Shown in pieces: positions 10,105 to 61,977 of a stretch of 64,000 bases of DNA. The notes under the pieces are model-generated. The model had not been told where the DNA came from. It did no database searches and saw only the letters and a program-made list of their open reading frames with translations. The DNA comes from an uncultured Actinomycetota bacterium. Lineage in GTDB: Bacteria > Actinomycetota > Thermoleophilia > RBG-16-64-13. The position numbers and the translations under genes are program-made. How positions within the stretch are numbered: position 1 is the first letter of the stretch; the number at the start of each line of letters is the position of its first letter. Location of the stretch: positions 164,303 to 228,302 of the forward strand of contig CAVZSN010000011.1 in assembly GCA_963777945.1 (NCBI GenBank). Direction: 5' to 3'.

Positions 10105-13100
10105 CTACCTCAGGAGACAGCCGTTCGCCTGCAGATGGGCCTGCCAGTCGGCCTCACTTGTCTCGCCGCACTTGCGGAGCAGCCTGTCCCACTCGTCGTC
10201 GACCCAGCTCTCAAGCTGCTCCAGGGAGTGCTCGAAGCCGGGTTGGAAGAGGTGGGCGAAGCGACCCTGGCGCTTGAGCCACGGCACCAGCGGCAGCTTG
10301 TAGTGCGGACGGTAGGTGAGCCGGTACTCGCCGTCCTCGTACTCGAACAGCGGCCAATAGCAGGTGTTGACCGCTTCGCGGGCAAGATCGATGCTCTCCG
10401 CGCCGTCCGAGCGCCACCCGCGAGGGCAGGGGGCGATGACATTGAGGAAGGTAGGCCCGTCGATGGAGAGGGCCTTGGCCGCCTTGCGCACCAAGTCACG
10501 AGGATCGTGGGGCGAGGCCTGGGCCACGTATTTGAGGCCGTGCGCGATCATGAGCTCGGTCAGGTTCTTGCGATGCTGCAGCTTGCCGGCCGACTCCTCG
10601 CCCACCGGGCTGGTGGTGGTCCAGGCAGCGATCGGGGTGGCTCCCGAGCGCTGGAAGCCGGTGTTCATGTAGGCGCCGTTGTCGTAGCAGACGTAGAGCA
10701 TCTTGTGGCCGCGCTCCATGGCGCCCGACAGCGATTGGAGGCCGATGTCGTAGGTGCCGCCGTCGCCGCCGAATGCGATGAACTTGACGTTCTCGTCGAT
10801 GACGCCCTTCTTCTTGAGCGCGCGGAACGCGGTCTCGACGCCGCTCAGCGTGGCGGCCGAGTTCTCGAACGCGGTGTGGATGAAGCTGCTCTTCCAGGAC
10901 GTGTAGGGGTAGATGGTGGTGCTGACCTCGAGACAACCGGTCGCCGCGCTCACCACCACCGGGTCGCTGGTGCCCATGAGCACCTGCCGCACCACGACCG
11001 GTGCACCGCAGCCGGCACACATGCGATGGCCGCCCGCCAGCCGGCTGCCCTGCTCGACCAGCCGGAGCCATTCCACGCGGGCCTTCTCGAAGTGGTCGGT
11101 CTCCTTGAGCGCGTCGACGGGGCAGACGTTGACACATTCCCGGCAGAGGATGCAGCGGCTCTCGTCCACCTTGAAAGAGGTGAGAGTGCGTTCGTTGAAG
11201 GTGAGTGCGCCCGTGGGACACGTGCTGACGCAGCGTCCGCAGCTGATGCAGTCGGCCATCTGGAGGGCCTCGCCGTAGGGCGTGTCGACGTTGATGGTGA
11301 AGCCCCTGCCGGTGAAGTCGTAACAGGCCGGGCCCGCCACGTCCCGGCAGACCCGTACGCACCGACCGCACGCGATGCAGCGCTCCATGTTGCGCCGGAT
11401 GAAGGGATGTTCCAGCTGGGGCTCGACCACCCGTACACGGCCGCCCTTCTTGACGAGATCGTTGGTGGTGACGCCGTATTCCACGCCGAGCCTCTGCAGA
11501 TCGCACTCGCCCAGGCTGGGGCACTCGCACTGCAGGCAGCGCTTGGCCTCCTCCTGCGCCGTGGCGAGGCTGTACCCCTTCTCCACTTCCACGTTGGGTG
11601 CAGATAGACGCTTGGCTTTCGCGACCTTGGGCATAGCGGCGCGAGCCTGCGGCTCGGCGCCGGCACCCATCTTGAGCCAGACAGGGTCGCGTTCCGCCAA
11701 GCGGCGTGCGACGGTGGCCAGGGCTTTCTCTCGCCCGAGCTGCTCGAGGTAGGGCAGGCGGGCGTGGGCGGCAAGGTCCTCTTCCAGAGCGGTCAAGTCC
11801 TCTCCGCGCAGCCAGGCGTCGGCAGCCACGGCCGCGCGCTTGCCGCCCGCCACCGCGTGTATGACGGAGCGGGCGCCGCCGAGAGCGTCGCCAGCTACGA
11901 AGAGGCCGGTATGGGAGGTACGCCCTGTGAACCGGTTGATGGTGAGCTGGACGCCGCCGACCTTGAGCGCGGGGCGGCCACGGCCGCCGGGCACCCACCC
12001 GTCCTCCGCGGCCAGGATCACGGTCGCGCCTCTTACGGAGGTCGCCTGCTTCTCGGCCGCCGCCGGGTCGGCTTCGAACTTGAAGATCACGCCCTCCTCA
12101 CGGGCGGCTGCGACCTCGCGCTCGCCCGCGGGCATGGCGTCGGCGCCCGACCGCGACAGCACGGTCACATTCGCGGCGCCTGAGCGGAGCGCAGTACGGG
12201 CGGCATCGACGGCCGTGATGCCGTCTCCGATCACCAGCACCGGACCGCTCAGATGCGCCGGGCGCCCATTACGTTGCTGCCGCAGGAATCCGAGGGCATC
12301 GAGGGTGTCACCGTCGGCGGCCTTTCTCGCATTTCGCGGCGCACTCCGCGGCGCACCGCCGGTGGCCAGGACCACGGCGTCGAAACCGGCGTCGAACAAT
12401 CCCTGAGGGTCGGACTCGTAGCGCATCTTGGAGTCACCGACGAAGCGGACGCCGGCATCCCACAGCGGCTGCAGCTCGGTGTCGAGCACCTTGGCCGGCA
12501 GGCGGAACTCGGGAATGAGGTAGCGCAGTGATCCGCCGGGCTCGGTCTCGGCGTCATAGACCGTGACCTGATGTCCCCGGCCGGCCAGGAACCAGGCAGC
12601 GGACAGGCCGGCGGGTCCCGCGCCCACGACAGCCACCCTCTTGCCGGTCGCGGCGCCCCGGGGCAGGCGGGCTTTGGAGTGGTCCGCCGCCGCCCTGTGC
12701 AGGTCGCAGATGGCGATAGGCTCGTCCACGTCTCCCCGCCGACACACGGGCTCGCAGTAGCGAGGACAGACGCGACCCAGGATGCCGGGGAAGGGCAGTT
12801 CTTCACGCACGACCGCGGCTGCGCCGGTGGTGTCGCCCTCGGCCAGCAGCGCCAGATACCCCGGGATGTCGATGTGGGTGGGGCAGGCGTGGGTGCAGGG
12901 TGCCTCGCAGTAGGCGTTGTGGTCGGACAGATACATCCGGAGGTAGCTTTCACGCCGGGCAGTCACTCGGGGCGTGTGGGTCTGCACGGACATGCTGTCG
13001 GTCACCCAGGTGGTACAGGCCGCCTGCAGTTTGTCGACGCCCTCGACCTCCACCAGGCAGAGGCGACAGCCGCCCCATGCCGCCGTGCCCTCGAGGTGGC

Positions 13101-13300
13101 ACAGCGCGGGGATGTCGATGCCTTCGCGTCGGGCCACATCCAGTACGGTCTCGCCCTGTCTGCGCCGCCAACCGCCGACCGTTGATGGTGATGTTCAGGG
13201 CCGCCGCCGGCGCGGCCGCTGCGGTTGCCGTCGCCGCTGCGGTTGCCGCCCCCGCCGTCGTCGCGGCGCTCGTCGTCCGCTTCCGTCGCGGTGCGCTCAT
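10105..13300 (-). CDS. Fusion: HydA/NuoG-like Fe-S subunit (BfuA) + inserted GltD/NfnB-like FAD/NAD(P) domain + extra 4Fe-4S + 2-oxoacid:ferredoxin oxidoreductase beta subunit
   Basis: One 1010-aa frame plus a short N-terminus after a frameshift near 13160. Motifs: CHLEGTAAWGGCRLC...C (2Fe-2S); SDHNAYCEAPCTHACP; GRVCPRYCEPVC; VVGAGPAGL; CLQCEC..GECDLQ; CIACGRCVRVC; CISCGRCVSTCP; CILCRECVNVCP; then GHRMCAGCG, TGCLEV, GGDGGTYDIG..YDNGAYMNTG (TPP/Mg) and APCPRGW. Confidence 0.9.
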
Positions 13301-15211
13301 CTCCGCCTCCTCCCGGCAGACACGAGCGCTCCCGTGTCGACTCGAACGGCGTCGAACCTGCACGACTGTCGGCAGGCATCACACTGGATGCACAGCCTCT
13401 GGTCGATGACGTGCACCTGCTTGCGCTCCCCGCTCACGGCGCCCGCCGGGCAGGCCAAGGCGCAGGCCCGGCAGCCGGTGCAGGCTTCCTCGTCGATGTG
13501 GTAGCGGATGAGCGGCCGGCACACTTTTGCCGGGCAGCGGTGCTCCTCGACATGGGCCATCACCTCGTCGCGGAAGTAACGCAGGGTCGACAGGACCGGG
13601 TTCGGGGCGCTGCCTCCCAACGCGCACAGCGAGCCTTCGGCCACGTCCTCGGCCAGCGCCTCCAGCAGGCCGATGTCATCCACTGTAGCCAGACCGGCTG
13701 AGATGCGCTCGAGGATCTCGAGCATGCGAGTAGCGCCGACCCGACAGGGTACGCACTTGCCGCAGCTCTCCTCGGAAGTGAACTTGAGGAAGAACTTGGC
13801 GAAGTCGACCATGCACGTGGTGTCGTCGACCACCACCATGCCGCCGGAGCCCATCATGGAGCCGGCAGCCAGCAGGCTTTCGAAATCGATCGGCTCATCG
13901 AGCAGCGAGGCGGGGAGGCAACCACCGGAGGGACCTCCGAGTTGAACGGCCTTGAAATGCCGGCCGGGCAGCATACCTCCGCCGATATCGAAGATCACCT
14001 GGCGCAGCGTCGTGCCCATGGGGACCTCGATGAGACCTCCGTTCACTACCTTGCCGGTGAGCGAGAAGATCTTGGTGCCCTTGCTGGTGGCCGTACCCAT
14101 GGCGGCGAAGGCATCCGCGCCGTGGTTGACGATCCACGGGACGTTGGCGTAGCTCTCCACGTTGTTGAGGTTGGTCGGTTGGCCCCAGAGGCCGTGGGCC
14201 GCCGTGCGGATATGCTTGCCTCGCGGCATGCCCCGCAGTCCCTCGATGGATGCCGTCAAGGCCGTCGACTCACCGCAGACGAACGCGCCGGCGCCCTGGT
14301 TGATGCGGATGTCGAAGTCGAAGCCCGAAGCGAGGATGTTCTCGCCCAGGAGACCGCGCTCCCGCGCCTGGTCCAGGGCAGACCGCAGCCGCTCGACCGC
14401 GAACGGATACTCATGCCGCACGTATACGTACCCGGCCACGGGGCCGTTGTCCGCGCCGATGGCGTATGCCGCGATGATCATGCCCTCGATGACGCTGTGC
14501 GGGTTCCCCTCCAGCACCGAGCGGTCCATGAAGGCGCCCGGATCACCCTCGTCGGCGTTGCAGATGACGTAGTGGACGGCGCCCGGATTGCCGCGCGACG
14601 TACGCCACTTCCTACCCGTCGGGAAACCGGCCCCGCCGCGGCCGCGGAGGCCGCTGCGCTCGATCTCGTCGATGACGGCGACCGGATCGGCGGCGGACAG
14701 CACTTTGGCCAGCGCCGCATACCCCCCGTGGGCCAGGTAGTCGTCGATGGAGAAGGGGTCCACCTTGCCGTTGAGGCTGAGGACCACCCGGCTTTGCAGC
14801 GCATAGAAGGGGATCTCGCGCTCCAGGGCCAGGGGCTCACCGGTCTGAGGATGCTTGTAGAGGAGGCGCTCGACGACGCCGTCGCCGACGATGCTCGTGT
14901 CGATGATCTCGGCGACATCCTTGGCCTGCAACCGGGGATAGAAGATCCCGCGCGGGCGGAGCACCATGATGGGTCCCTGTTCGCAGAAGCCGTGGCAGCC
15001 GGTCTCGATGACGGCTACCCGGTCGGTCAGTCCCCGCTGTTCCAGTCCGGCCTCGACCGCCTTGCGCAGCGCCACCCTGCCGGACGCGTGACATGCGGTG
15101 CCGGCGCAGATGCGGATCTCGGTCCTCGTATCGTCGGCCAGATAGGCGCCGGAGCCGGCGGCGACTGCCGCCTGCAGGGCGGCCGCGATCTTGGCGGCGC
15201 GCGGCGCTCAC
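13297..15211 (-). CDS. HydB/NuoF-like FMN/NAD subunit (BfuB) with N-terminal 2Fe-2S and C-terminal 2x4Fe-4S
   Basis: CAGTAC...CHGFC (first part in the shifted frame), RGRGGAGFPTG, CNADEGDPGAFMDR, GAGAFVCGE, CGKCVPCR..CALG, H..CPAKVC, CTGCRACALACP, CIQCDACRQSC; ATGA overlap with the next gene. Confidence 0.93.
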
Positions 15212-33288: not shown

Positions 33289-36063
33289 CTACTCTATTGC
33301 TCGAGAGCGTCCAAAGCTTCCAGCACCGTCCCCAACTGGTCGATGAGTCGTCCGTATTCGGCCCAGTCGCCCTGGCGCTGCGCCTCGAGGGCCTGGCTGA
33401 ACAGAGAGTTGGCCAGAGCGATCAGAGCGTTCGCGTCGCTGGGGAGGGTGGTGCCGGTGGTCGGGCCGGTCGTCGTCGTGGTCCCGCCCGGGGTGGTGGT
33501 GGTCGTTCCTCCGGGCGTGGTCGTCGTGGTGCCGCCCGAGGTGGTGGTCGTCGTCCCACCCCCGGACGCCGAAGATCTTCGCGATCGCCTCTCCGAGCGT
33601 GGGCTCCATGACCACTTGATCCCCGTAGGCCACGATGACCCGGGTGAGCTCGGGGATGGGGCTCTCAGATGCCTGCAGGTACAGGGGCTCGAAGTACATG
33701 AGCGACGTGTTGATGGGTACCACCAGGAGGTTGCCGCGGATCACCTCGCTACCGGCCTGATCCCACAGCGTCAGCTGCGCCGAGATGTCGGGCTCGTTGG
33801 TGATGCGGGCCTCGATCTGGGCGGGGCCGAAGACCAGCTTATCCTTGGGGAAGTCGAGGGTGAGGAGCTTCCCGTAGTTCTCTCCGTCCTGGCGCGCCAC
33901 GAGCAATGAAGCCATGTTCTGTCTTGCTGAGTGGGGAGAAAGGCAAGATCAGGGCGAACTCCGGCTCCGTCTGGCCGGGGAGCGCCAGCACCTCGTAGTA
34001 CGGGACCACCGGGATCTGCTCGGAGGCGTAGATCTCCATGGGGATCTCCCAGACGTCCTCCTTGTTGTAGAAGATGATGGGGTCCTTCATGTGATACGTG
34101 GCGAGCACTGTCCGCCTGCACGCTGTACACGTCTTCCGGATACCGGATGTGGCTGCGAAGATCGGCCGGCATCTGATCGCCCGGCGTGAACAGGCCCTCG
34201 AACACCTTGCCCCAGGCGTTCGCGATGGGGTCCTGGGAGTCGATCTGGTAGAAGGTGACCTGGCCGTCGTAGGCGTTGACCACCACCTTGATGGGGTTGC
34301 GGATGTAGTTGATCCCACCCTCGTGTGGCTGGGAATACGGGAAGCGGTCGGATGGTGGTGTACGCGTCCCACATCCACACCAGCGACCCGTCGTCGCGGA
34401 GCACGAGATACGGGTCGCGGTCGTACTGGAGGAACGGCGCGAGCGCCTGCACTCTCTCCCGGATAGTCCTGCTGGTACATGATGCGCGACTCGTCCGTGA
34501 GTGAGTCGGAGAACATGATCTTGAGGGTCCTGAAGCGGAAGCTGAAGGCAAGCTGCCGCGAGCTTGCTTTTGATCGCCACCCCACCGTCGCCGGCGTAGG
34601 TGGACGTTTCATTCGTGTCGCCCTTGGGATAGTCGAACTCGGGACTGGTCGTCTTGACGACGACGTACTCGTTGCCCAACTCGCCGTAGTAGATCTCCGG
34701 CCTGGTGATCTTGAGGTCGGTGTCGGTACGCGGTGGGATGTCGCGCACCCACAGCAGGGGCAGGCCGTCGCCGCCGGCTTCGTTCACCGGGCTCATGACG
34801 AACCCGTAGCCGTGGGTGTAGGTGAGATGCTGGTTCACCCAGGTCTGCGACTGGGTCTGCAGCTGGCTCTGGTCGAGCTCCCGGGCGCTGATGAGCACCT
34901 GACGGTACTTGCCGTCGACGATGTAACGGTCGACATCGACGTCGGTGAACGAGTAGTAGAGGCGGATCTCCTGGATCTGGGAGTAGGTGGACAAGGCCGG
35001 CCGCGGTTCCCACAAGCGGACGCTGGCCAGAGTGAGCCTCGTTGTCCTTGATCTCGGCTGCCGTGAGGTCCGCGGTGGCGGGATGAGGGACGCTGGTGAT
35101 GTTGCCGAGTCCGAAGGCGTAGCTGGTGGCCTCGATGTTGTCCGCGATGTAGGGCGACTCGGCGGTGATCTCGTTGGGAGACACCTTGTACTGCTGGACG
35201 ATGGCCGGGTAGACCTTGCCTGCCAACGCCCAGGTGAGGAACATGACGGCGATGGCGATCGCCGGAAGCCTCCAGCCCTTGTAGCGGATGTTGGCGAGGA
35301 ACAGTACGGCGGCCACCAGCGAGACGATCGCCAGAAAATGCAGCACCGGCAGTGAGGCATGCACGTCGGTGTAGCTGGCGCCGAACACGACGCCCCTGGT
35401 GGAGTAGTCGAGGGCCCAGGTCTGGATCATGTAGTCTCCGGCCTTGGCCACCATCGCCGCCGCCAGGATCACCGACAGATGAGCCTTGACGTGCGGAGCC
35501 AGACGTATGCGGTTACCGGCATCGAGCACTAGGGCTCGGTCCGCCAGATAGACCAGGGCCGTGGCCACGAACGTGAACAGCAGGGCCACGCCCACGAAGT
35601 CCACGAGCATGTCCCAGACCGGAAGGGTGAACACGAAGAAGGAAGCGTCCTTGCCGAAGAGAGGATCGGTGTAGCCGAAGTCACCCCGGTTGAGGAAGAG
35701 CAGGACTTCTTCCCAGCGGCTGCTGTATGTGGCTCCGACGACGATGGAGAGCGCTATCGCTATCAGCAGCAGGAGTCGCCCGGGCCACTTGCGGTTGGGC
35801 TTGAGCTCGAGAACATCCTCGTCACCCTCGCTCTGCACGGCCAGCAACCGCGGGGAGATCTTGCGGGCCAACCATAGGTTGCCGTAGAGGATTACGAAGA
35901 AGATCACGCCGAAAAACAGGCCCACACATATTCTGGCCACCAGGGGTGTCCAGAACACCGTGGTCTGGCCCACCTCGGCGAACCACAGGTAGTCCGTCCA
36001 GATGCGGGAGACGAGGCCGCCCAGCCCTACCACTATGGCTGCGATGATGAGGACGATCACCAA
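33289..36063 (-). CDS. UPF0182 family membrane protein (frameshifted)
   Basis: WTDYLWFAEVG, DPLFGKDASFF, GASYTDVHA, YYSFTDVDVDRY, HLTYTHGYG, RPEIYYGE, PGPAQ-like FGPAQIE, RGNLLVVP. Confidence 0.93.
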
Positions 36064-36235
36064 CCGCCGCAGTGGACCCGGCTTGAGTCGCAGGATGCGT
36101 TGCAGCCTGTCGGGTCCGGCCGGTTTCTTGGATTGTGTCGCTGATTTGCCTTGCGTTGTTGCGATAGCTACGGCCCTCTCTCTCGTGTGGGTCCGGTGTA
36201 GTGTCTCCAGAGTCGAAGAGACTCGGGAAAGTGGC

Positions 36236-36892: not shown

Positions 36893-37041
36893 GGCGAAGT
36901 CCTCCCGCATCGCCTCTGGATCCGATCACATAGGTTAGCGGAAAGAGCGAACGGGTAACAACCGGGGCGGACTGCCGTCGGCCGCGGCAGGGTTGGCGAA
37001 GTCACCCACCGTCGCCCTTGGCGGTCGACCCCGAGAGTGCT

Positions 37042-37063
37042 AATATACCCCACTGGGTATATT
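37042..37063. promoter_or_regulatory. Perfect palindrome AATATACCC-cact-GGGTATATT, CsoR/RcnR-family operator-like
   Basis: 9-bp inverted repeat with a TACCC-N4-GGGTA core, overlapping a TGcTAATAT -10-like box about 100 bp upstream of trxA. Confidence 0.7.
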
Positions 37064-37162
37064 GAGCCGGGCAGGGTGCGGCGTCGGCCGGTGTGCCGCC
37101 GACGCGCGTGTCGGCTAACATAACAAGGGTCGGCCCGCGGCCCTCAACAAAAGGAGACCAGC

Positions 37163-37489
37163 ATGAGCGGTGGGAGTGTGCAAGAGGTCAACGCGCAGGA
37201 ATTCGATCAGATCGTTTCTACTTCGACCGTCCCTGTGGTAGCGGACTTCTGGGCTCCCTGGTGCGGTCCGTGCCGCATGGTGGGTCCCGTCCTGGAGAAG
37301 ATGGCCGCCGACCACACCGACAAGGTGAGCGTCATCAAGATCAACGTCGACCTCAACCAGGAACTGGCCGCACGCTACGGGATCATGAGTATCCCCACGG
37401 TCATCCTGTTCAAAGATGGGAAGCTGGACAAGCAGCTCATCGGCGCCCGGCAGCAGAAAGACTACGAGAAAGAGTTCGGGATCGCCTGA
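37163..37489 (+). CDS. trxA: Thioredoxin
   Basis: DFWAPWCGPCRMVGP, IMSIPTVILFKDG; AAGGAG RBS. Confidence 0.95.
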   Translation: MSGGSVQEVNAQEFDQIVSTSTVPVVADFWAPWCGPCRMVGPVLEKMAADHTDKVSVIKINVDLNQELAARYGIMSIPTVILFKDGKLDKQLIGARQQKDYEKEFGIA

Positions 37490-37490
37490 G

Positions 37491-37850
37491 ATGGAACGGA
37501 CTGATGGGGAACGCATGGTCATAGTGGGCTCGCGCCGCATGGACGCCTGGCGTGGCGGTGGTTGACGGCCTTCACTATCTCTGGAGGAGATAACGGGCTA
37601 TCTGAACGACGATCTCGCCACCCGCATGCAGGGGGATCGGCCTCTCCGCTACGTCGACATCGACGATGCGGAACTCGGGGAGTATCCCCTGCTGTCTGAG
37701 GCCGTGGCCGGCCCCGGGCGAATACCGCTGGTGCTGGTGGGCGATGAGGTCAAGTCGCCCACGGGCATAAGCATCTACTGGGTCGAAGAACAGCTTGCCG
37801 GCCTGGGGGTGGAGCCCTTCGCGGTCCCCGCGGTCAAGGGAGGGAGTTAG
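37491..37850 (+). CDS. Candidate selenoprotein, small thioredoxin-like (YuzD/DUF1462-like pattern), UGA at 37563-37565
   Basis: In-frame MERTDGERMVIVGSRRMDAWRGGG-TGA-RPSLSLEEITGYLNDDLATRMQG..LRYVDID..YPLL..IPLVLVGDEVK; hairpin TATCTC(T)-GGA-(G)GAGATA at 37576-37592. Confidence 0.7.
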
Positions 37851-37855
37851 AAACG

Positions 37856-38083
37856 ATGGCTTCGTATGACTTGAGATGCTCTTCGTGCGGCAAGGACTTC
37901 GAGGTGTTCCTGCTCGGCTTCCTCAAAGACGACGCCAAGGTGTGTCCGGATTGTGGGAGTCGCAGTGTGGAACAGCGCTTCACCGGCTTCGGAGGGGTGA
38001 CGGGCCTGGTGTCGGGCGCCTGTCTCGATACGGGTCGTTGTCAGCCCAGCACGAGTTGCTCCCCCAGATCCGGCTTTAGCTGA
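37856..38083 (+). CDS. FmdB-family zinc-ribbon protein
   Basis: YDLRCSSCG.....CPDCGS; C-terminal SCSPRSGFS ends in TGA. Confidence 0.8.
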   Translation: MASYDLRCSSCGKDFEVFLLGFLKDDAKVCPDCGSRSVEQRFTGFGGVTGLVSGACLDTGRCQPSTSCSPRSGFS

Positions 38084-38179
38084 GCTAGCTGATCGAGGGG
38101 CCCGTGTGGCCCCTACGTGCGATAATACGCCGCGCTGCCGCCCCTCACATCGGGGCGGGGCGGGCGACCCGGAGGTGGG

Positions 38180-38995
38180 ATGTACCCGGAGCTGTTCCAC
38201 ATAGGCGGATTCACCATGAACTCCTTCGGGCTCATGATGGCTCTAGCCTTCATCTCCGCCGGGTTCGTGGCCCACTGGCAGTTCAAGCAGCGCGGGGTCA
38301 GGCCTGACTTCATTTACGGACTGCTCATCGCCGCGGTCGTCGGTGGGCTGCTAGGCGCCAAGATCCACTACCTCATCCTCCACCCGGATGAATGGCCGGG
38401 CAACCTGCTGAGCGGGGGCGGCCTGGTATGGTTCGGTGGTCTCTTCGGAGCCATCCTGGGAGTAGTCATCGTCACGAAGCTCTCCAAGGAGCGACTGGCT
38501 GCGGTCATGGATGCCGGGGCTATCGCCGTGTCGGTGGGCTATGCGGTGGGGCGGATGGGCTGCTTTCTCCGCGGCGACGACTACGGGGTCCCCACAGACC
38601 TGCCCTGGGGCATCGCTTTCCCCAACGGTCTTCCTCCGACCACCGAGCGGGTGCATCCCACCCAGCTCTACGAGATCGCCGGCTCTCTGGTCATCTTCGC
38701 GCTGCTCACCTGGGTGTTCTCGCCGCGCTTCAAGCGCGAAGGCCCCTTGATCTTCGTGTACGCGGTGCTGGCCGGCATTGCGCGACTCTTGGTGGAGTTC
38801 ATCCGCACCAACGAACCGGTGGCCCTTGGTCTCACCTCGCAGCAGTGGATCGCCGTGGCCATGATCGTCGTGGGTGTGATCGGCGCCTGGTACTTCGGCA
38901 CCCGAGGCCGGTTGCGCCCGGTCATCGAACCCAAGTCCTCAAAGGCGGTGAAGTCGGCGCCTTCGGCTGCCGCCTCGCGCGGCGGCAAGAAGTAG
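38180..38995 (+). CDS. lgt: Prolipoprotein diacylglyceryl transferase
   Basis: MYPELF, GGLLGAKIHY, GLVWFGG, GRMGCFLRGDDYG, HPTQLYE, RLLVEFIR. Confidence 0.93.
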   Translation: MYPELFHIGGFTMNSFGLMMALAFISAGFVAHWQFKQRGVRPDFIYGLLIAAVVGGLLGAKIHYLILHPDEWPGNLLSGGGLVWFGGLFGAILGVVIVTKLSKERLAAVMDAGAIAVSVGYAVGRMGCFLRGDDYGVPTDLPWGIAFPNGLPPTTERVHPTQLYEIAGSLVIFALLTWVFSPRFKREGPLIFVYAVLAGIARLLVEFIRTNEPVALGLTSQQWIAVAMIVVGVIGAWYFGTRGRLRPVIEPKSSKAVKSAPSAAASRGGKK

Positions 38996-39024
38996 CCGGC
39001 CGCAGGCATGCAGGAGGTGGGGCT

Positions 39025-39579
39025 TTGAAGAGGATCACTTCGGTCAGAGCGGTGGTCGCCGCTCTATTAATCGCGGCGCTGCTCGTCGGGCTGGGATCCA
39101 TCCTCGCTTCGTGCGGATCGGAGCCGGCGGCCGGGACTTCGTCTGGCGTCACGAGCCCGGGGTCCGACACCGGTGGCGCCGGAGCCCCTCAGTTCTCCGG
39201 GGTCACCCTCGACGGTGACATCGTCACACTGGACCAGTTCCGAGGGAAGCCGCTCCTGCTGGTCTACATGACCAGCGGCTGACCGGCCTGCCGGGAGGAG
39301 ATGCCCGAACTCGATAGGTTCTATCGAGAGAGTCCCGACAAAGCGGCGGTCCTGGCAGTTGCCCCGCCCTCGAGCGAAGGTGGCATGCGCGAACTCATGG
39401 CCGAAGGGGGGTACTCGTTCCCGGTCATGATCGACGGTGGAGACGTCGGCTCTCAGTATGGAGTCCGGTACGTGCCCACTCTCTTCGTCATCGATGCGGA
39501 GGGCAAGGTCGCACAGAAGATCGTGGGCGCAGTCGACGCCAACCGGCTCTCCCAGCTGGTCGATGACCTTTCCGGCTGA
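39025..39579 (+). CDS. Candidate selenoprotein TlpA/ResA-like thiol-disulfide oxidoreductase lipoprotein (UxxC), UGA at 39280-39282
   Basis: AGGAGG + TTG 39025; lipobox ILASC; APQFSGVTLDG..LDQFRGKPLLLVYMTSG-TGA-PACREEMPEL; YGVRYVPTLFVID; perfect hairpin at 39310-39328. Confidence 0.85.
39310..39328 (+). promoter_or_regulatory. SECIS-like hairpin
   Basis: CTCGATAG-GTT-CTATCGAG, a perfect 8-bp stem; the G-initiated loop starts 35 nt after the UGA. Confidence 0.6.
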
Positions 39580-40277
39580 ACTCGGTCTCACCGCGTTCCT
39601 GGTGGCTCTCGCTGCTGGGGCCGCCAGCTTCCTCAGTCCGTGTGTCCTGCCCCTCCTTCCCGCCTACCTCTCGTTCGTCTCGGGGCTGAGCGTCGAAGAG
39701 GTGGAGAAGGGCGACAGGCGGGTGCTGTGGAGCACCTTGGGCTTCGTTCTCGGGTTCTCCATCGTCTTCACGATCCTGGGCGCGGGTTTCTCCTATCTCG
39801 GCGGACTGAGCGAATCAGCGGGTGCTGGAGATCGTGGCGGGGGCCCTTCTCATCGTCCTGGGTGCCATCATCGCCGGAGCGACCGCGCCCTCTTTCATGC
39901 AACGAGACATGAGACCGTTCCTGGCGAAGGCCCCCCGGGGACCTGCCGGCGCGGTGATAGTGGGCATCGCATTCGCTCTCGGCTGGACTCCCTGCGTGGG
40001 CCCGGTCCTGGGTTCGATCCTGACCCTCGCGGCCTCGGGCAGCGACCCGGCGGCCGGAGCCGCTCTTCTCTTCGTGTACTCGTTGGGTCTGGGTATCCCG
40101 TTTCTCATCGCGGGACTTTTCGTGGGCAAAGCCCTGAGGGCCTTCGCGCGCATACGGCGTCATCTACGGACCATCCAGATCGTATGCGGAGTGCTGCTCA
40201 TCATCTACGGGGCGCTGCTCATCGGTGGCCAGTTCGGCTGGCTGGGGGATCGCTTGTCGGGCTGGATCATCTGGTAG
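39563..40277 (+). CDS. ccdA: Cytochrome c biogenesis / disulfide transporter CcdA (frameshift near 39815)
   Basis: ASFLSPCVLPLLPAYLSF and AFALGWTPCVGPVL, YSLGLGIPFL. Confidence 0.92.
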
Positions 40278-40437
40278 AAGGGGCACCGCTCCCAGGGCCC
40301 CGGCGGGCGGGGCATCGTCGCCGGTCACCAGGGGTGGGCGCCGGCGCCCACCCGGTGTATACTCCGTCGCTCGCGCCGTCCGCAAGAGGCGGCAGGATCG
40401 CACGGTCCTGTCCGGCGGCGTGTGTAGTATCCATACC

Positions 40438-40490
40438 ACCCCTGCTCCGGCAGTGAAGCCGGGGCCGCATAGACCGTAGGAGGTGACCCA
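40438..40490 (+). ncRNA. rpsF leader (S6:S18-binding autoregulatory RNA motif)
   Basis: CCTGCTCC-hairpin-GGCCGC.TAG.CC..AGGAGGTG layout matches the rpsF leader as I recall it from Bacillus; needs a covariance-model check. Confidence 0.6.
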
Positions 40491-40492
40491 AA

Positions 40493-40852
40493 CTGAACAG
40501 CTATGAGCTGGCTCTGATCCTGCGCACCGATGTGGAGGAGCAAGAGCGCACCGCGGTCCTCGACCGCATCAAAGAGATCATCACGGGTGACGGTGGCGCC
40601 ATCGTGAAGATCGACGAGTGGGGCAAGAGGCGTCTGGCTTACGAGATCAAAGACTCGTTCGACGGCGTCTACTACATCCTGTATTTCCAGGCCACTCCCA
40701 AGACGCTCGACGAGGTGACCCGGGTACTCGGCATCACCGACAGCGTCCTCCGCTTCATGCCCATCAAGCATGAGAAGCCGTTCGCGTTCCAGCAACCCGC
40801 GGCAACTCCGGCCGCGCCGGCAGCCCCGGCCGCGCCGGCCCCACAAGCCTAG
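40493..40852 (+). CDS. rpsF: 30S ribosomal protein S6
   Basis: NSYELALILR, WGKRRLAYEIK, GVYYIL, DSVLRFM; apparent CTG start 7 nt after GGAGGTG. Confidence 0.95.
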   Translation: MNSYELALILRTDVEEQERTAVLDRIKEIITGDGGAIVKIDEWGKRRLAYEIKDSFDGVYYILYFQATPKTLDEVTRVLGITDSVLRFMPIKHEKPFAFQQPAATPAAPAAPAAPAPQA

Positions 40853-56382: not shown

Positions 56383-57822
<1,440 letters not shown>

Positions 57823-57824
<2 letters not shown>

Positions 57825-57891
57825 CCGCTGTACCCGCCTCCGACTCGCTTATGCGGGTACGCAAAGGCTCCCTCAGGCGGGTACAGCGGCT
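57823..57891. terminator. 17-bp perfect inverted repeat between convergent genes
   Basis: AGCCGCTGTACCCGCCT (57823-57839) / AGGCGGGTACAGCGGCT (57875-57891). Confidence 0.55.
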
Positions 57892-57920
57892 CCTCACCTA
57901 CTGGTCGGCGCGCGGCGACC

Positions 57921-59578
57921 TTAGTCATCGTCGGGAGTGCCCGCCGTGGCAAGGCGTACAGGTCGCCGTCGCGATACCCCGATTTGGTGGCAGCTGGTGC
58001 AACTGAGACGATGCTCGCCTGACGGCATGTGTTCTCCCACCGGGGATGGCGGAAGGTCGACGGCTCCCACGCCTTGGTCGTGTGGCACGATGCGCACTTG
58101 GTGAGCCCCCCGTGCTTGGTCCCGTGACAAGATACGCAGGTTGAGCCGACCTTCTTGAACGGAGTCCCGTGGCAGTTGGCGCACGAGAGGCTTGCATGGG
58201 CCCCTGTCAGCTTGAACGGATGCGTGAAATTGACATCGCTCCAGGACGTCGGGGTGTGGCAGGAGGCGCAGTTGGTCAACCCTTTGTGCTGATCGCTGTG
58301 GCAGGAGATGCAGGCCGGGTTGGCCGACGGGAACTGGGTGCCGGGGATGTTGGCCACTCCCGGCTTACTCTCGTGACAGTCGGCGCAGGTGAGGTCCTCG
58401 TGGCCGCCTGAGATCGGGAACGGATGCTCGAAAGTCACGTCGCTCCAGGACGTGGGGGTGTGACAGGAGCCGCAATCGGTCAGCCCCCCGTGCTGATCGC
58501 TGTGGCAGGAGATGCAGGCCGGGTCGGCCGATGGGAACTGGGTGCCGGGGATGTTGGCCACTCCCGGCTTGCTCTCGTGACAGTCGGCGCAGGTGAGGTC
58601 CTCGTGGCCGCCTGAGATCGGGAACGGGTGCTCGAAGGTCACGTCGTTCCAGGACGTGGGGGTGTGACAGGAGCCGCAATCGGTCAGTCCCCCGTGTTGA
58701 TCAGTGTGGCAGGAGATGCAGGCCGGGTCGGCTTCAGGCAGAGTGGTCCCCGGTATGTTCTCCACCCCCGGTTTGCTCACATGGCAGTCGGTGCAGTCAA
58801 GGCCGGCATGGGCGCCTTCGCGCGGGAACGGATGTTGGTCACCGGCCGAGCCCCAACTGGTGAGACTGTGGCAGGAACTGCACTCGCCCCTGGGCTCGTG
58901 CGGGGGAGTGTGGCAATACGAGCACTGTCCGGAGGCGGTGGTGCCGTCGTGGCAGGCCAGGCACGATGACATTGCCGCGGGGTCCTTGTAGGCGAGGGGC
59001 GGGACGCCGCGGTGAACGAGGCGGACATGGCAGTCCAAGCACAGCTCGTCGGCGTGAGCCTCGTGCGAGAACGGGACGTTGCCGAGAGTCATGTCGGCGG
59101 GGGTCTCGTGACACCGGAAGCAGCTGGAGTTCGGTATCTCCCTGGTGACCGCGAGCGGTGACTCGGAATGGCCCTCTCCGGAGTGCTCCGTCAGGTGTAC
59201 CCAGATCTCTCGGAACGAGAAGAGCTTGGTCTCGATATAGGACAGAGCGCCCGGAGGAATGTGACAGTCGCGGCATTCCGCAGCAGGCGAAGCGTGGGCT
59301 GAGTCCTGCCAACTGGTGTTGTACGGATCCATCTCGTGGCAGGAGACACAGAAGGGACTTGCGCTCGTGTAGTGAGCTGTGACAAAAGAGGCGATGATCA
59401 GGATGACGATCAGCGCACCAGCGATGGAGAGTCCGATTATCCAGCGCCGCCGTCGTCTTCTCGGAATCGGCGCCTCGGTTTCTGCGGGCGGCGGTCCAGA
59501 GGATGGCGCCGCATCGCCGGCTGTTGCGTCGGCCGAGATGCCATCGTTCAACGGAATTCCGTCTTCGTCCACGTGCAC
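57921..59578 (-). CDS. Membrane-anchored multiheme cytochrome c (about 21 CXXCH); start uncertain
   Basis: RRRRRRW + TM helix, NapC/NirT-like start (CVSCHEM..YNTSW..SAH..CRDCH); 19 CXXCH in frame, plus CTSCH and CTPCH in shifted frames at the 3' end. Confidence 0.92.
58225..58800 (-). repeat. 204-bp (68-aa, three-heme) tandem coding repeat, about 2.8 units
   Basis: GCAGGAGATGCAGGCCGGG recurs at 58301, 58505 and 58709; units are near-identical at DNA level. Confidence 0.9.
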
Positions 59579-59761
59579 CCCCGGGGGATCCGTCAGTCGA
59601 GAGACTCGACCCCCACACTCGGCTCGGGCCGACCCGCTTGTGCCCGGTGCAAACTGCGGATAGTGCATCACCATACCATACATACACTGCGTGTCCGCAA
59701 GATGCGGAGACGGAGCAATCCGGGCAAGCTCCGCTCGTTTGGTGGGCTCAGCAGGTGCAGA

Positions 59762-59790
59762 TTGACGTCTCTCCCGTCGCGGGATACCAT
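59762..59790 (+). promoter_or_regulatory. Sigma70-type promoter for the cob operon
   Basis: TTGACG (59762-59767), 17-bp spacer, TACCAT (59785-59790). Confidence 0.75.
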
Positions 59791-59799
59791 GGCTCGGCA

Positions 59800-59945
59800 A
59801 TCTCTCAGATCCGCGGGAACCCGGTGGGATTCCGGGACTGCCCCGCAACTGTGACCGCGGACGAAAGCCGCTGCAAGCCACTGCCCCTGGGCGGGAAGGC
59901 GCGGCCGGTAGGATGAAGCGGAAGCCAGGATACCGCGATGAGAGG
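59800..59945 (+). ncRNA. Cobalamin riboswitch
   Basis: GGGAAcccGGTG.GATTCCggg.CTGCCCCGCAACTGTGA, GCCACTG..GGGAAGGC, AAGCCAGGATACC; upstream of cobT. Confidence 0.93.
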
Positions 59946-60101
59946 ACGTCGCTACTAGGCCTCGCGGGAGGGCTCAGGTGGTCTTCTTCTCTGTACGTTT
60001 TCGGGCCTCCGCCACGCTGCGGGCTTTCCTGCTGACGCGCAGAGGCGCCTCCTCCCCCCCGACGGCACCCACCCCGACCCGCTCGTGATGGAGGACACCC
60101 G

Positions 60102-61977
60102 TTGAGCACGTTACTCGAACGCACAATCAGCCAGATCGGCCCGCTCGATCGCGAGGCCATGCAGGCCGCTCAGGCCCGGCAGGATTCCCTGACGAAGCCG
60201 ACGGGGGCCCTCGGCCGGCTCGAAACGCTCTCGGTCCATTTGGCGGGGATCACGGGCCGGCCCGTGCCGGCCTTTGCGAGCAAGGTGGTGGCCGTCATGG
60301 CTGCCGACCATGGGGTCACAGCGGAAGGCGTGAGCGCCTACCCGGCCGAGGTCACTCCCGGGATGGTGGCCAACTTCGCCGCCGGCGGAGCGGCTATCAA
60401 CGTCATCGCCAAGCACATCGGCGCGCGGGTGATCGTGACCGACGTGGGGGTGAACGCGGACATCTCTGCGCTGGAAGGGGTGCGGCACCGCAAGGTCCGC
60501 ATGGGCACGGCCAACATGGCCCTCGGGCCTGCCATGACTCGCGAAGAGGCCGTCCGGGCCATCGAGATCGGCATCGAGGTGGTCGAAGAGGCGGTCGCCG
60601 AGGCGATGATCGGTGCCGGCTCGGGCGCGAGCGCCGGCGGCGACGCGGCGACCGGCGCCGCCGCAGGCTTGTCCATGTTCGCCACCGGCGAGATGGGCAT
60701 CGGGAACACCACCGCCAGTTCCGCGATCATCGCCGCGCTGACCGGGTGCGCCGTCGCCGAGGTGACCGGCCGTGGGACCGGGATAGCGGTGGACGCTCTG
60801 CCCCGAAAGATCGCGGTGATCCAGAAGGCTCTGGAGGTGAATCAGCCCGACCCGAGCGATCCGCTCGACGTTCTCGCGAAAGTCGGGGGGCTGGAGATCG
60901 CCGCCCTCACCGGCGTCATCCTGGGGGCGGCGGTGCGGCGTTGCCCGGTCGTCATGGACGGGTTCATCTCCTCGGCCGCAGCTCTAGCCGCGGTGCGTCT
61001 GTGCAAGGACGCGGGGCCGTACGTCCTTCCAAGCCATGTCTCGGTGGAGGTGGGGCATCAGGTGGTGCTGGACGAACTCGGCCTGCTGCCGCTGTTCGAC
61101 CTGCAGATGAGGTTGGGCGAGGGCACCGGTGCTGCGCTGGCCATGTCGATCATCGACGCGGCCGCCAAGACCTTGGCCGACATGGCGACGTTCGAGAGCG
61201 CGAACGTCGCGAACCGGACGGAGGGTGAGTCCGGGCCGACGCGGACCGAGCGGCTCCTCTTGGTGAGGCACGGCGAGGCAGAGGGAGGGATGCCTGGAGT
61301 GCTCATGGGTCGTACCGACGCGGGCCTATCGGAGGCCGGCCGCGCGCAGGCGGCCCTCCTCGGAGAGGTCCTTCCTCTGCCCGGCTCGGTGACTCTCGTG
61401 AGCAGTCCGCTGGCGCGCGCGCGGGAGACGGCGGCCATCGCGGTCGCTGCGGCGAAGGCCGCCGCGGCGAGGGCTGGCGACGCGCGCAGGCTGCGACGCC
61501 GCGCCGAGCGCGTCGCCACGGCCGGCAGCGTCGCGGCGGGGTCGGCAGCAGCGGCGCCCATCGACCCCGACCTCAGGGAGATCGACTTCGGCGACTGGGA
61601 GGGACTCACGTTCGCAGAGGTCGGGCGGCGGTACCCCGCGCTGGTCGCAGCTTGGTCGGAGAGTTCAGCCTCGACTTCGGCTTTCCGGGCGGCGAGAAGC
61701 TGGCAGACTTCGCCACCCGGATCGAAGGCGTGGCGCGGCGTCTCGCCGCGGCCGAGACCGACACCGTGTCGCCTTCACTCACGGTGGCGTGATCCGCGCG
61801 CTCATCTGCCACTTCTTGGGTCTGCCTCTGCGCGACTATCTGCTGTTCGACATCACGCCTGCCTCGGTCACCACGCTCCGGCTGTGGGGCGAACGTGGCG
61901 TGCTGGCGGGTCTGCGCCGGGCGAGAGTCTCTCTGGACGAGCCTTGCAGCTGGGTATGGCGAAGATCGTCCTCATAA
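60102..61977 (+). CDS. cobT: CobT (NaMN:DMB phosphoribosyltransferase) fused to a CobC-like histidine phosphatase
   Basis: LTKPTGALGRLE, AADHGV, GEMGIGNTT, MRLGEGTGAALA, continuing in frame into RLLLVRHGE, LVSSPLARARETA, LREIDFGDWEGLT; HGGVIRAL in a shifted frame. Confidence 0.85.

Follow-up and report, generated by a model that had tools for sequence, protein, structure and literature searches.

The question raised by this locus is whether six closely spaced genes, running from a thioredoxin gene (trxA) to a ccdA gene, constitute a reducing relay across the cytoplasmic membrane and, if so, which process the relay serves. The genes occupy positions 37163-40277 of a 64,000-nucleotide stretch of DNA (contig CAVZSN010000011.1 of assembly GCA_963777945.1; hereafter the window, meaning the whole stretch that was analysed) from an uncultured anaerobic actinobacterium, whose genome is represented by 2.57 Mb in 11 contigs with an estimated completeness of 59%. 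Our answer is that the cluster appears to be a selenium version of the Trx-CcdA-TlpA relay, in which the TlpA-like protein carries selenocysteine (Sec), and that it probably serves cytochrome c maturation. An earlier annotation made from the DNA letters alone, the sequence-only reading, had proposed a selenium version of a Trx-CcdA-TlpA/ResA relay, and the gene identities and the Sec coding bear this out. With moderate confidence we favour a more specific arrangement of two linked modules under shared CsoR-type control, in which tlpA-ccdA would be the thiol-reducing arm of System I (CcmABCEF). The argument starts from what could be established directly, namely gene identities, Sec coding, synteny, co-occurrence and the operator sequence.

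All six genes lie on the plus strand. The first, trxA (37163-37489), encodes a cytoplasmic thioredoxin with a WCGPC motif (PF00085, E 2.5e-29; TIGR01068, 119 bits, cut-off 96.8). It is followed by a gene that we call secX (37515-37850, with a second possible start, an ATG, at 37491), predicted to encode a 111-residue selenoprotein with a single Sec at residue 17 (G-G-G-U-R-P; TGA at 37563-37565), and by an FmdB zinc-ribbon gene (37856-38092; PF09723 and TIGR02605, both above cut-off), the product of which ends GFS-U-A-S-stop. The fourth gene, lgt (38180-38995), encodes a prolipoprotein diacylglyceryl transferase (PF01790, E 3e-52), which scores 115.1 bits against TIGR00544, slightly under the cut-off of 118.9. 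The gene for the TlpA/ResA-like lipoprotein, hereafter Sec-TlpA, begins with a TTG at 39025 and ends at 39579; its product carries a Redoxin domain (E 4.5e-20), a lipobox (L-A-S-C30) and the redox motif U86-P-A-C89. It overlaps by 17 nucleotides the last gene, ccdA (39563-40277; DsbD_TM), the frameshift-repaired joined translation of which matches PF02683 (E 1.5e-18) and has one conserved Cys in each half of a six-helix core (SPCVLP and WTPCVGP). Open reading frames (ORFs) and family searches thus confirmed the co-oriented, closely spaced cluster and the tlpA-ccdA overlap described from the sequence alone. Upstream, the cluster is flanked by a divergent gene for an MBL-fold hydrolase and downstream by rpsF-ssb-rpsR-DUF2232-rplI; a promoter and terminator scan gave no convincing terminator after ccdA.

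One part of that description does not hold for this assembly, namely that ccdA is an intact ORF: its N-terminal 86 codons and its C-terminal 155 codons lie in different frames. When the DNA is aligned with intact orthologues, the lesion falls at CTG-A-GCG near 39805-39810; the gene measures 715 nucleotides here and 714 or 717 in relatives. A frameshift in the GGG run at 39820-39822 had been an earlier candidate and was dropped when the alignment with intact relatives shifted the position. We regard an assembly error as the probable cause of the lesion. The assembly is indel-prone, with frameshifts in the genes for UPF0182, CcmF (split, on contig C8) and CcdA. The UPF0182 gene (33306-36204 of the window, minus strand) shows at least four frame changes within 3 kb relative to an intact same-genus orthologue, and changes repeated in this manner point to an indel-prone assembly rather than to a pseudogene.

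Because the reading depends on selenium, the in-frame TGA codons are central to it, and the combined evidence leads us to read those of tlpA, secX and the zinc-ribbon gene as genuine Sec codons. The genome encodes tRNA-Sec, with selA and selB directly upstream of the tRNA-Sec gene. The tlpA gene contains exactly one in-frame TGA (39280-39282; S-G-U-P-A-C), which is kept in ∼20 related genomes and is replaced by a Cys codon in one relative (G021) and in other families of the class. The TGA of secX is kept in 24 genomes. The zinc ribbon is a third predicted selenoprotein: the sequence-only reading had ended this gene at 38083, but the TGA at 38081-38083 is the Sec codon and the real stop is at 38090-38092, and the gene end GF(S/G)-TGA-GCN-NNN-stop recurs in 16 genomes. 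In all three genes the in-frame UGA aligns with Cys in homologues, which for secX are distant ones.

Each of the three codons is followed by a candidate selenocysteine insertion sequence (SECIS) hairpin. By the bSECISearch criterion, the apical loop of a bacterial SECIS lies 16-37 nucleotides after the UGA and begins with G; the loops here lie 17 (secX), 19 (zinc ribbon) and 35 (TlpA) nucleotides past the UGA, in agreement with a criterion of this type. The zinc-ribbon hairpin (38096-38114, plus strand; AGGGGCC-CGUGU-GGCCCCU) lies after the stop codon and takes the form GGGGCC-CGUGY-GGCCCC across relatives; among the three hairpins it alone shows significant covariation, with compensatory changes in six of seven pairs and 94.6% of cells paired, a result reached by none of 500 shuffles. 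The tlpA hairpin (39310-39328; CUCGAUAG-GUU-CUAUCGAG) is identical in nucleotide sequence in nearly all Sec forms despite synonymous freedom and is missing from the Cys form; because it is essentially invariant, covariation cannot be assessed. The secX hairpin (37575-37593) is conserved, made of rare codons (CUA UCU CUG GAG GAG AUA) and 98% paired; its covariation was not significant, and conservation and codon rarity are its support. A scan of positions 36900-40600 against Rfam at a permissive threshold returned no SECIS or other credible RNA family.

A natural control is provided by G021, a 96% complete genome without selA, in which TlpA has the Cys motif WCGPC, the zinc ribbon ends Cys-Gly-Leu-stop without a hairpin and secX is missing; the Cys forms and the loss of secX thus match the absence of selA. 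These data bear on a contrary explanation, that the in-frame TGAs are genuine stops or the products of gene decay or misassembly. The error-prone nature of the assembly, with its several frameshifts and its completeness of 59%, speaks for it. However, the identical codon is TGA in about 16-24 independent genomes, including short-read metagenome-assembled genomes (MAGs), homologues carry Cys at the TGA positions, the hairpins that follow are either conserved or covary and disappear in Cys forms, and the Sec machinery is encoded here, its absence in G021 coinciding with Cys versions. We therefore consider that this explanation is already effectively refuted and has next to no chance of being right. 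The two TGAs reported from the sequence alone, in secX and tlpA, are upheld as Sec codons by the same four lines: conservation, SECIS hairpins, selA-selB-tRNA-Sec and the contrast with G021.

The gene arrangement is far beyond chance, and the cluster is conserved as a unit: the order trxA-secX-znr-lgt-tlpA-ccdA (znr being the zinc-ribbon gene) recurs in all eight same-genus genomes and in at least seven other genera of the family. The related contigs come from MAGs of uncultured Actinomycetota, Thermoleophilia or Gaiellales, from soil and anaerobic reactors. Among the relatives surveyed, tlpA always travels with ccdA, their reading frames overlapping or abutting, and trxA-secX-znr can be 8-25 kb away from the rest of the cluster. 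The synteny check that the sequence-only reading had called for thus came out in favour of a conserved unit. The same reading had allowed that a separate resA-ccdA-ccsBA locus might do the job, with the present cluster unconserved; neither is the case, because the cluster is conserved and the genome holds no other ccdA and no resA-ccdA-ccsBA locus.

The relay had also been described as having its own Lgt, which is wrong as stated. A search for a second, housekeeping lgt found none in this genome. Many relatives have two or three copies, and in the five single-lgt relatives checked (G001, G005, G008, G014 and G016) the retained copy is in every case that of the cluster. Because it is the sole copy here and the one retained in all five, we assign the cluster lgt, by copy number, as a general lipoprotein transferase, on which the anchoring of Sec-TlpA would depend but which does not serve that protein alone. 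The extra lgt paralogues of G011 (L071, C3:8500-14000) and G013 (L072, C1:4243500-4249000) again adjoin ccdA paralogues, and in G013 a gene for a CopA-like heavy-metal ATPase starts 1.7 kb downstream of the paralogous ccdA-lgt pair. In a sister family (f6; G034, G039 and G029, loci L068, L069 and L070) there is a conserved lgt-ccdA-tlpA-TPR block adjoining rpoD. The TlpA of this family has Cys (WATWCDPC) and a transmembrane anchor in place of the lipobox. The lgt-ccdA-tlpA neighbourhood is old and predates the Sec form.

A shared operator connects the parts of the cluster. Upstream of trxA, a promoter-like element (37016-37063, plus strand; TTGGCG-N17-TAATAT) is overlapped by a CsoR-type operator with the core ATACCCCACTGGGTAT at 37045-37060. 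This core occurs once in the window, against 0.02 occurrences expected by chance, and matches the streptomycete CsoR consensus ATATACCCCTNAGGGGTATAT (PMC3902906). The genome holds one CsoR homologue (C10:221598-221966), with a Cys...His-x3-Cys ligand pattern read by eye, and the two elements of a CsoR regulon, a type-2 consensus operator and a CsoR gene, are both present. The promoter-like element is conserved in relatives as TTGGCR-N17-TAAYAT, with the hexamers read by eye; a promoter scan returned none above threshold, the TTGGCG and TAATAT hexamers scoring below it. The operator stands before trxA in almost every relative, but not in G021, the genome without selA. Where tlpA is detached (G011, G013 and G019), the same operator lies directly upstream of it, and in G019 it also lies upstream of a TPR-lgt pair. 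Since the same operator stands before each module, and before lgt when lgt is detached, the modules are probably derepressed together. The cluster is probably regulated by metal stress. Copper impairs the assembly of c-type cytochromes and induces the DsbD/DsbE pathway (PMC4600104; bioRxiv 10.64898/2026.10.17.759849); because copper poisons cytochrome c assembly, a reducing relay derepressed by copper would make sense.

Further CsoR-type operator-like palindromes were found at C7:29941, C5:12070 and C10:282996; one lies between cysK and a ThiF/MoeB-like gene and one beside a gene for a TetR regulator and a peroxiredoxin-like ORF. None of those found elsewhere in the genome adjoins copA or another copper ATPase gene. 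Between the operator and the ribosome-binding site of trxA (37100-37160 of the window, and in relatives) there is a second conserved element, GTCGGCTAACATA, together with a GC-rich hairpin; these may represent another promoter or a structured leader.

The operator also bears on the view that the neighbourhood reflects shared ancestry and not a pathway, the housekeeping genes having stayed by rpsF-ssb-rpsR-rplI while the selenoproteins act independently. That lgt is the general copy would fit this view, as would the sister family, in which lgt, ccdA and tlpA stand together although TlpA there has a transmembrane anchor and no lipobox, and the 8-25 kb that may lie between trxA-secX-znr and the rest. 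Against it stand the separated modules each bearing the same operator, the constant pairing of tlpA with ccdA in overlapping or abutting frames and the re-association of the modules with ccm genes after rearrangement, and we consider this explanation improbable.

The re-association with ccm genes points to a likely client of the relay. The sequence-only reading had noted the absence of ccsA and ccsB from the window; this was confirmed, and no ResB was found anywhere in the genome. The two Cytochrom_C_asm matches in the genome are CcmF and CcmC, and a System I operon, ccmE-ccmF-ccmA-ccmB-ccmC, is at C8:58600-63200, beside haem biosynthesis genes and several ORFs for multihaem cytochromes. Inspection by eye of the ccm cluster here and of that in G019 revealed neither a CcmG nor a CcmH gene. 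CcmE here is the Cys-type CxxxY variant (CPSKY), the variant known from archaea and Desulfovibrio. In four genomes of four genera (G011, G013, G014 and G019), the stretch from lgt to tlpA(-ccdA) encloses ccmE-F-A-B-C in the same orientation. In G019 (L058, C11), positions 10363-15181 also hold a BlaI/BlaR1-type regulator-peptidase pair and an FtsX-type ABC transporter, co-oriented, between ccmC and the Sec-TlpA gene.

Consistent with this arrangement, among 25 genomes of the family, in counts that ignore phylogeny, 19 have both Ccm and TlpA; TlpA stands alone in three (G003 and G006, both of them incomplete MAGs, and G009), three lack the two, and in no case does Ccm occur without TlpA. Both tlpA and ccdA are lost along with ccm in G016 and G022. 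In G016, trxA-secX-znr-lgt is kept, tlpA is lost and a ccdA remnant of 39 residues is left. The ccdA of the cluster is the only copy in the present genome, a search for a second having found none. The 21-haem cytochrome that the sequence-only reading named as a possible client is encoded in the window 17.5 kb from the cluster on the opposite strand; in the 788-residue ORF at 57794-60160 we counted 19 CxxCH motifs. The earlier suggestion that the relay serves cytochrome maturation is thus supported by the ccm adjacency in four genera and by the shared loss with ccm, although the system served would be System I (Ccm) and not the System II (CcsBA) that had been looked for.

Sec-TlpA matches PF08534 (E 4.5e-20) and PF00578 (E 4.8e-19), each with a score exceeding the cut-off, has the motifs S-G-U-P-A-C and Y-V-P-T and belongs to the TlpA/ResA/DsbE-like thioredoxin-fold family (Redoxin, cd02966); an N-terminal signal with the lipobox L-A-S-C30, kept in orthologues, predicts an extracytoplasmic location. 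Among proteins of solved structure, its nearest matches are Geobacter Trx-family proteins, ResA and Etrx. A second TlpA-like protein in the genome (C10:331418-332830, minus strand, downstream of lysS) is of the Cys type (WCPEC) and is fused to a DoxX/MauE-like membrane domain.

Models for a different use of such a relay are the CcdA-Etrx-MsrAB2 system of Streptococcus pneumoniae and the ScsABCD copper-stress system, in which case Trx-CcdA-Sec-TlpA would be a general envelope repair relay, feeding surface repair enzymes or damaged thiols under stress. The Etrx1/2 structures are among the best sequence matches of Sec-TlpA, a stress-type CsoR operator would suit an inducible repair system, G009 retains the cluster without detectable ccm genes and the lgt-ccdA-tlpA adjacency is older than the Sec form. 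Against a repair relay stand the ccm operon embedded between lgt and tlpA-ccdA in four genera and the joint loss of tlpA and ccdA with ccm in G016 and G022, and no Msr or other client gene lies in or beside the cluster. We consider envelope repair rather unlikely, more plausible nonetheless than shared ancestry.

Several observations weigh against cytochrome c maturation by the present cluster and temper our confidence in it. Sec-TlpA is under the equivalog cut-offs for ResA (70.8 bits against 170), DsbE (35.3 against 123) and TlpA (26.1 against 230), its match to the ResA subfamily model having E 1.3e-19 with a score below cut-off, and it is therefore filed at family level only; it is, moreover, about equally close to the pneumococcal Etrx proteins of methionine sulfoxide repair. 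The DoxX-fused Cys-type protein on C10 could instead be the cytochrome c factor. As for gene content, G009 (96% complete) keeps the whole cluster although neither CcmC nor CcmF could be detected there, G012 combines Ccm and Sec-TlpA with a complete lack of DsbD_TM proteins, and G017 has CcdA with neither Ccm nor TlpA; the co-occurrence counts given above carry no phylogenetic correction. The frameshift of ccdA in the assembly means that the relay could be broken in this strain. Finally, as regards copper, non-copper sensors of the CsoR family, such as CstR, use the same type of operator, and persulfide sensors also belong to the family.

The two remaining selenoproteins appear to belong to the other module. 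An AlphaFold2 model of SecX built with 13 orthologues (pLDDT 87.9) has a thioredoxin fold, beta-alpha-beta-alpha-beta-beta-alpha, with Sec in the loop preceding helix 1. SecX matches no Pfam or NCBIfam family, and no member of its alignment reaches any family threshold; the best match to DUF1462/ArsD, found in 1 of 13 members, has E 0.28 and does not reach the Pfam gathering threshold. Its profile gave chance matches only against PDB sequences (e.g. KRas), and Foldseek against the PDB gave weak thioredoxin-fold matches only (TM 0.37-0.45, E at least 0.06). A word-indexed search had first suggested that secX has no Cys homologues; this was dropped when an exhaustive hidden Markov model search gave distant full-length homologues with Cys at the Sec position (e.g. 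GG-C-GP). Because these homologues are borderline for DUF1462 (YuzD), ArsD and Thioredoxin_3, with 24.9 bits against 25 in the DUF1462/ArsD comparison, we assign SecX, on predicted fold and distant homology, to a small thioredoxin-fold family, so far poorly known, of which it is the Sec form. SecX is present in public protein databases solely as truncated "hypothetical" versions starting past the TGA, and neither the NCBIfam selenoprotein models nor the 2026 selenoprotein catalogue includes it. One metagenome protein (P0118), a full-length relative of SecX, has Trp exactly at the Sec position (GG-W-GP), which could be a TGA translated by the gene caller under another genetic code, and a distant secX homologue with a TGA occurs at an unrelated locus in the f6 genomes (G034, G039 and G029). 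No NCBIfam selenoprotein model matches the zinc ribbon. Two selenoprotein forms thus apparently have not been catalogued before: a single-Sec DUF1462/ArsD-like protein and an FmdB zinc ribbon whose C-terminal tail is Sec-x-x. Together, trxA, secX and the zinc-ribbon gene form a separable cytoplasmic module, possibly for thiol or metal handling.

From these data we infer a direction for the electron flow, apocytochromes as the substrate, a response to copper and functions for SecX and the zinc ribbon, as follows. Cytoplasmic thioredoxin would reduce the two membrane cysteines of CcdA, and CcdA would in turn reduce the selenenylsulfide (Se-S) of lipid-anchored TlpA on the outer face of the membrane. 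The U86 selenolate would then attack the disulfides of apocytochrome CxxCH motifs, ahead of CcmF-dependent haem attachment. Sec at an attacking position has a low pKa, exchanges faster and forms a couple that is more reducing, and this chemistry would suit an organism with cytochromes of ∼20 haem sites. The trxA-secX-zinc ribbon genes, which persist in a relative without cytochrome c machinery, would be a separate cytoplasmic trio for thiol or metal handling, and both modules, together with lgt where it is detached, would probably be derepressed together by Cu(I) or another thiol-reactive signal. A wider proposal, which we put forward tentatively and hold to be possible but doubtful, is that a CsoR-type copper-sensing repressor runs a dispersed regulon of three selenoproteins that, with Trx, CcdA and Lgt, shields the maturation of cytochromes c against stress from thiol-reactive metals in anaerobic Actinomycetota.

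The gene overlap, the synteny, the shared loss and the shared operator tie Sec-TlpA to CcdA and System I and so provide a testable function for a surface-exposed selenoprotein. What is new is that Sec-TlpA acquires partners and a likely role, a lipoprotein form in a Gram-positive-type cell and a pairing with System I, to which two further selenoprotein forms and a shared CsoR-type operator are added. If this role is borne out, Sec-TlpA would take the place of the CcmG-like reductant that is missing from a System I without CcmH in Actinomycetota. The operator suggests that a CsoR-type metal sensor governs the reducing power of the envelope, beyond copper efflux, which fits the targeting of cytochrome c assembly by copper. 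For annotation, all three selenoprotein genes are truncated or split in public databases.

Compared with known systems, the kind of protein is not itself new, since Sec forms of TlpA-like and Redoxin proteins with UxxC have already been catalogued (PMC9312934, PMC13188914). These have the same fold and, as in Sec-TlpA, Sec first in the redox motif, but they are list entries without assigned partners or roles, whereas the protein described here is a predicted lipoprotein, translationally coupled to ccdA and linked to ccm by synteny. The UXX-star selenoprotein families and the FmdB-family UxxU selenoproteins have likewise been listed by name and motif (PMC13188914). The zinc ribbon described here resembles UXX-star proteins in its C-terminal Sec-x-x tail and in its SECIS after the stop, and FmdB zinc ribbons are already listed as selenoproteins (PMC13188914); in the catalogued UxxU proteins, however, Sec replaces zinc-ligand cysteines, whereas here the four zinc cysteines are kept and Sec is in the C-terminal tail. 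SecX is like the DUF1462 (YuzD) and ArsD small thioredoxin-fold proteins in size and fold but has a single Sec and no conserved cysteine, and the structural matches are weak (TM about 0.4). In the UXX-star models of NCBIfam, Sec stands three residues from the C-terminus, so a SECIS would lie after the stop.

The operator shares with the CsoR regulons of Streptomyces lividans and Bacillus subtilis (PMC3902906) the pseudopalindrome ATACCCC...GGGTAT overlapping a promoter and a CsoR homologue with the Cys/His/Cys ligand set. It differs in having 8 nucleotides between the TAC and GTA repeats, against 9 in known CsoR sites, and in what it precedes: known CsoR targets are the copZA efflux genes, whereas here they would be a thioredoxin, selenoproteins, lgt and a trans-membrane reducing relay. 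Like the DsbD/CcdA-CcmG (DsbE) pathway of System I in proteobacteria, the cluster is predicted to supply reductant to CcmF-dependent haem attachment; it is set apart by the score against the DsbE model (35 bits against a cut-off of 123), by the lack of any CcmH seen here and by the CxxxY variant of CcmE. The nearest known relays are Trx-CcdA-ResA of Bacillus subtilis and CcdA-CcsX (Rv3673c) of Mycobacterium tuberculosis (PMC3781833), with which the cluster shares a cytoplasmic thioredoxin, a six-helix, two-cysteine CcdA, a membrane-tethered TlpA-like reductant of apocytochrome c, here a predicted one, and a tlpA or resA gene adjoining ccdA. Those relays have CxxC and serve System II (ResBC/CcsBA); the present genome has System I only, and its relay would combine UxxC with a lipobox lipoprotein anchor, lgt, two further selenoproteins and a CsoR-type operator.

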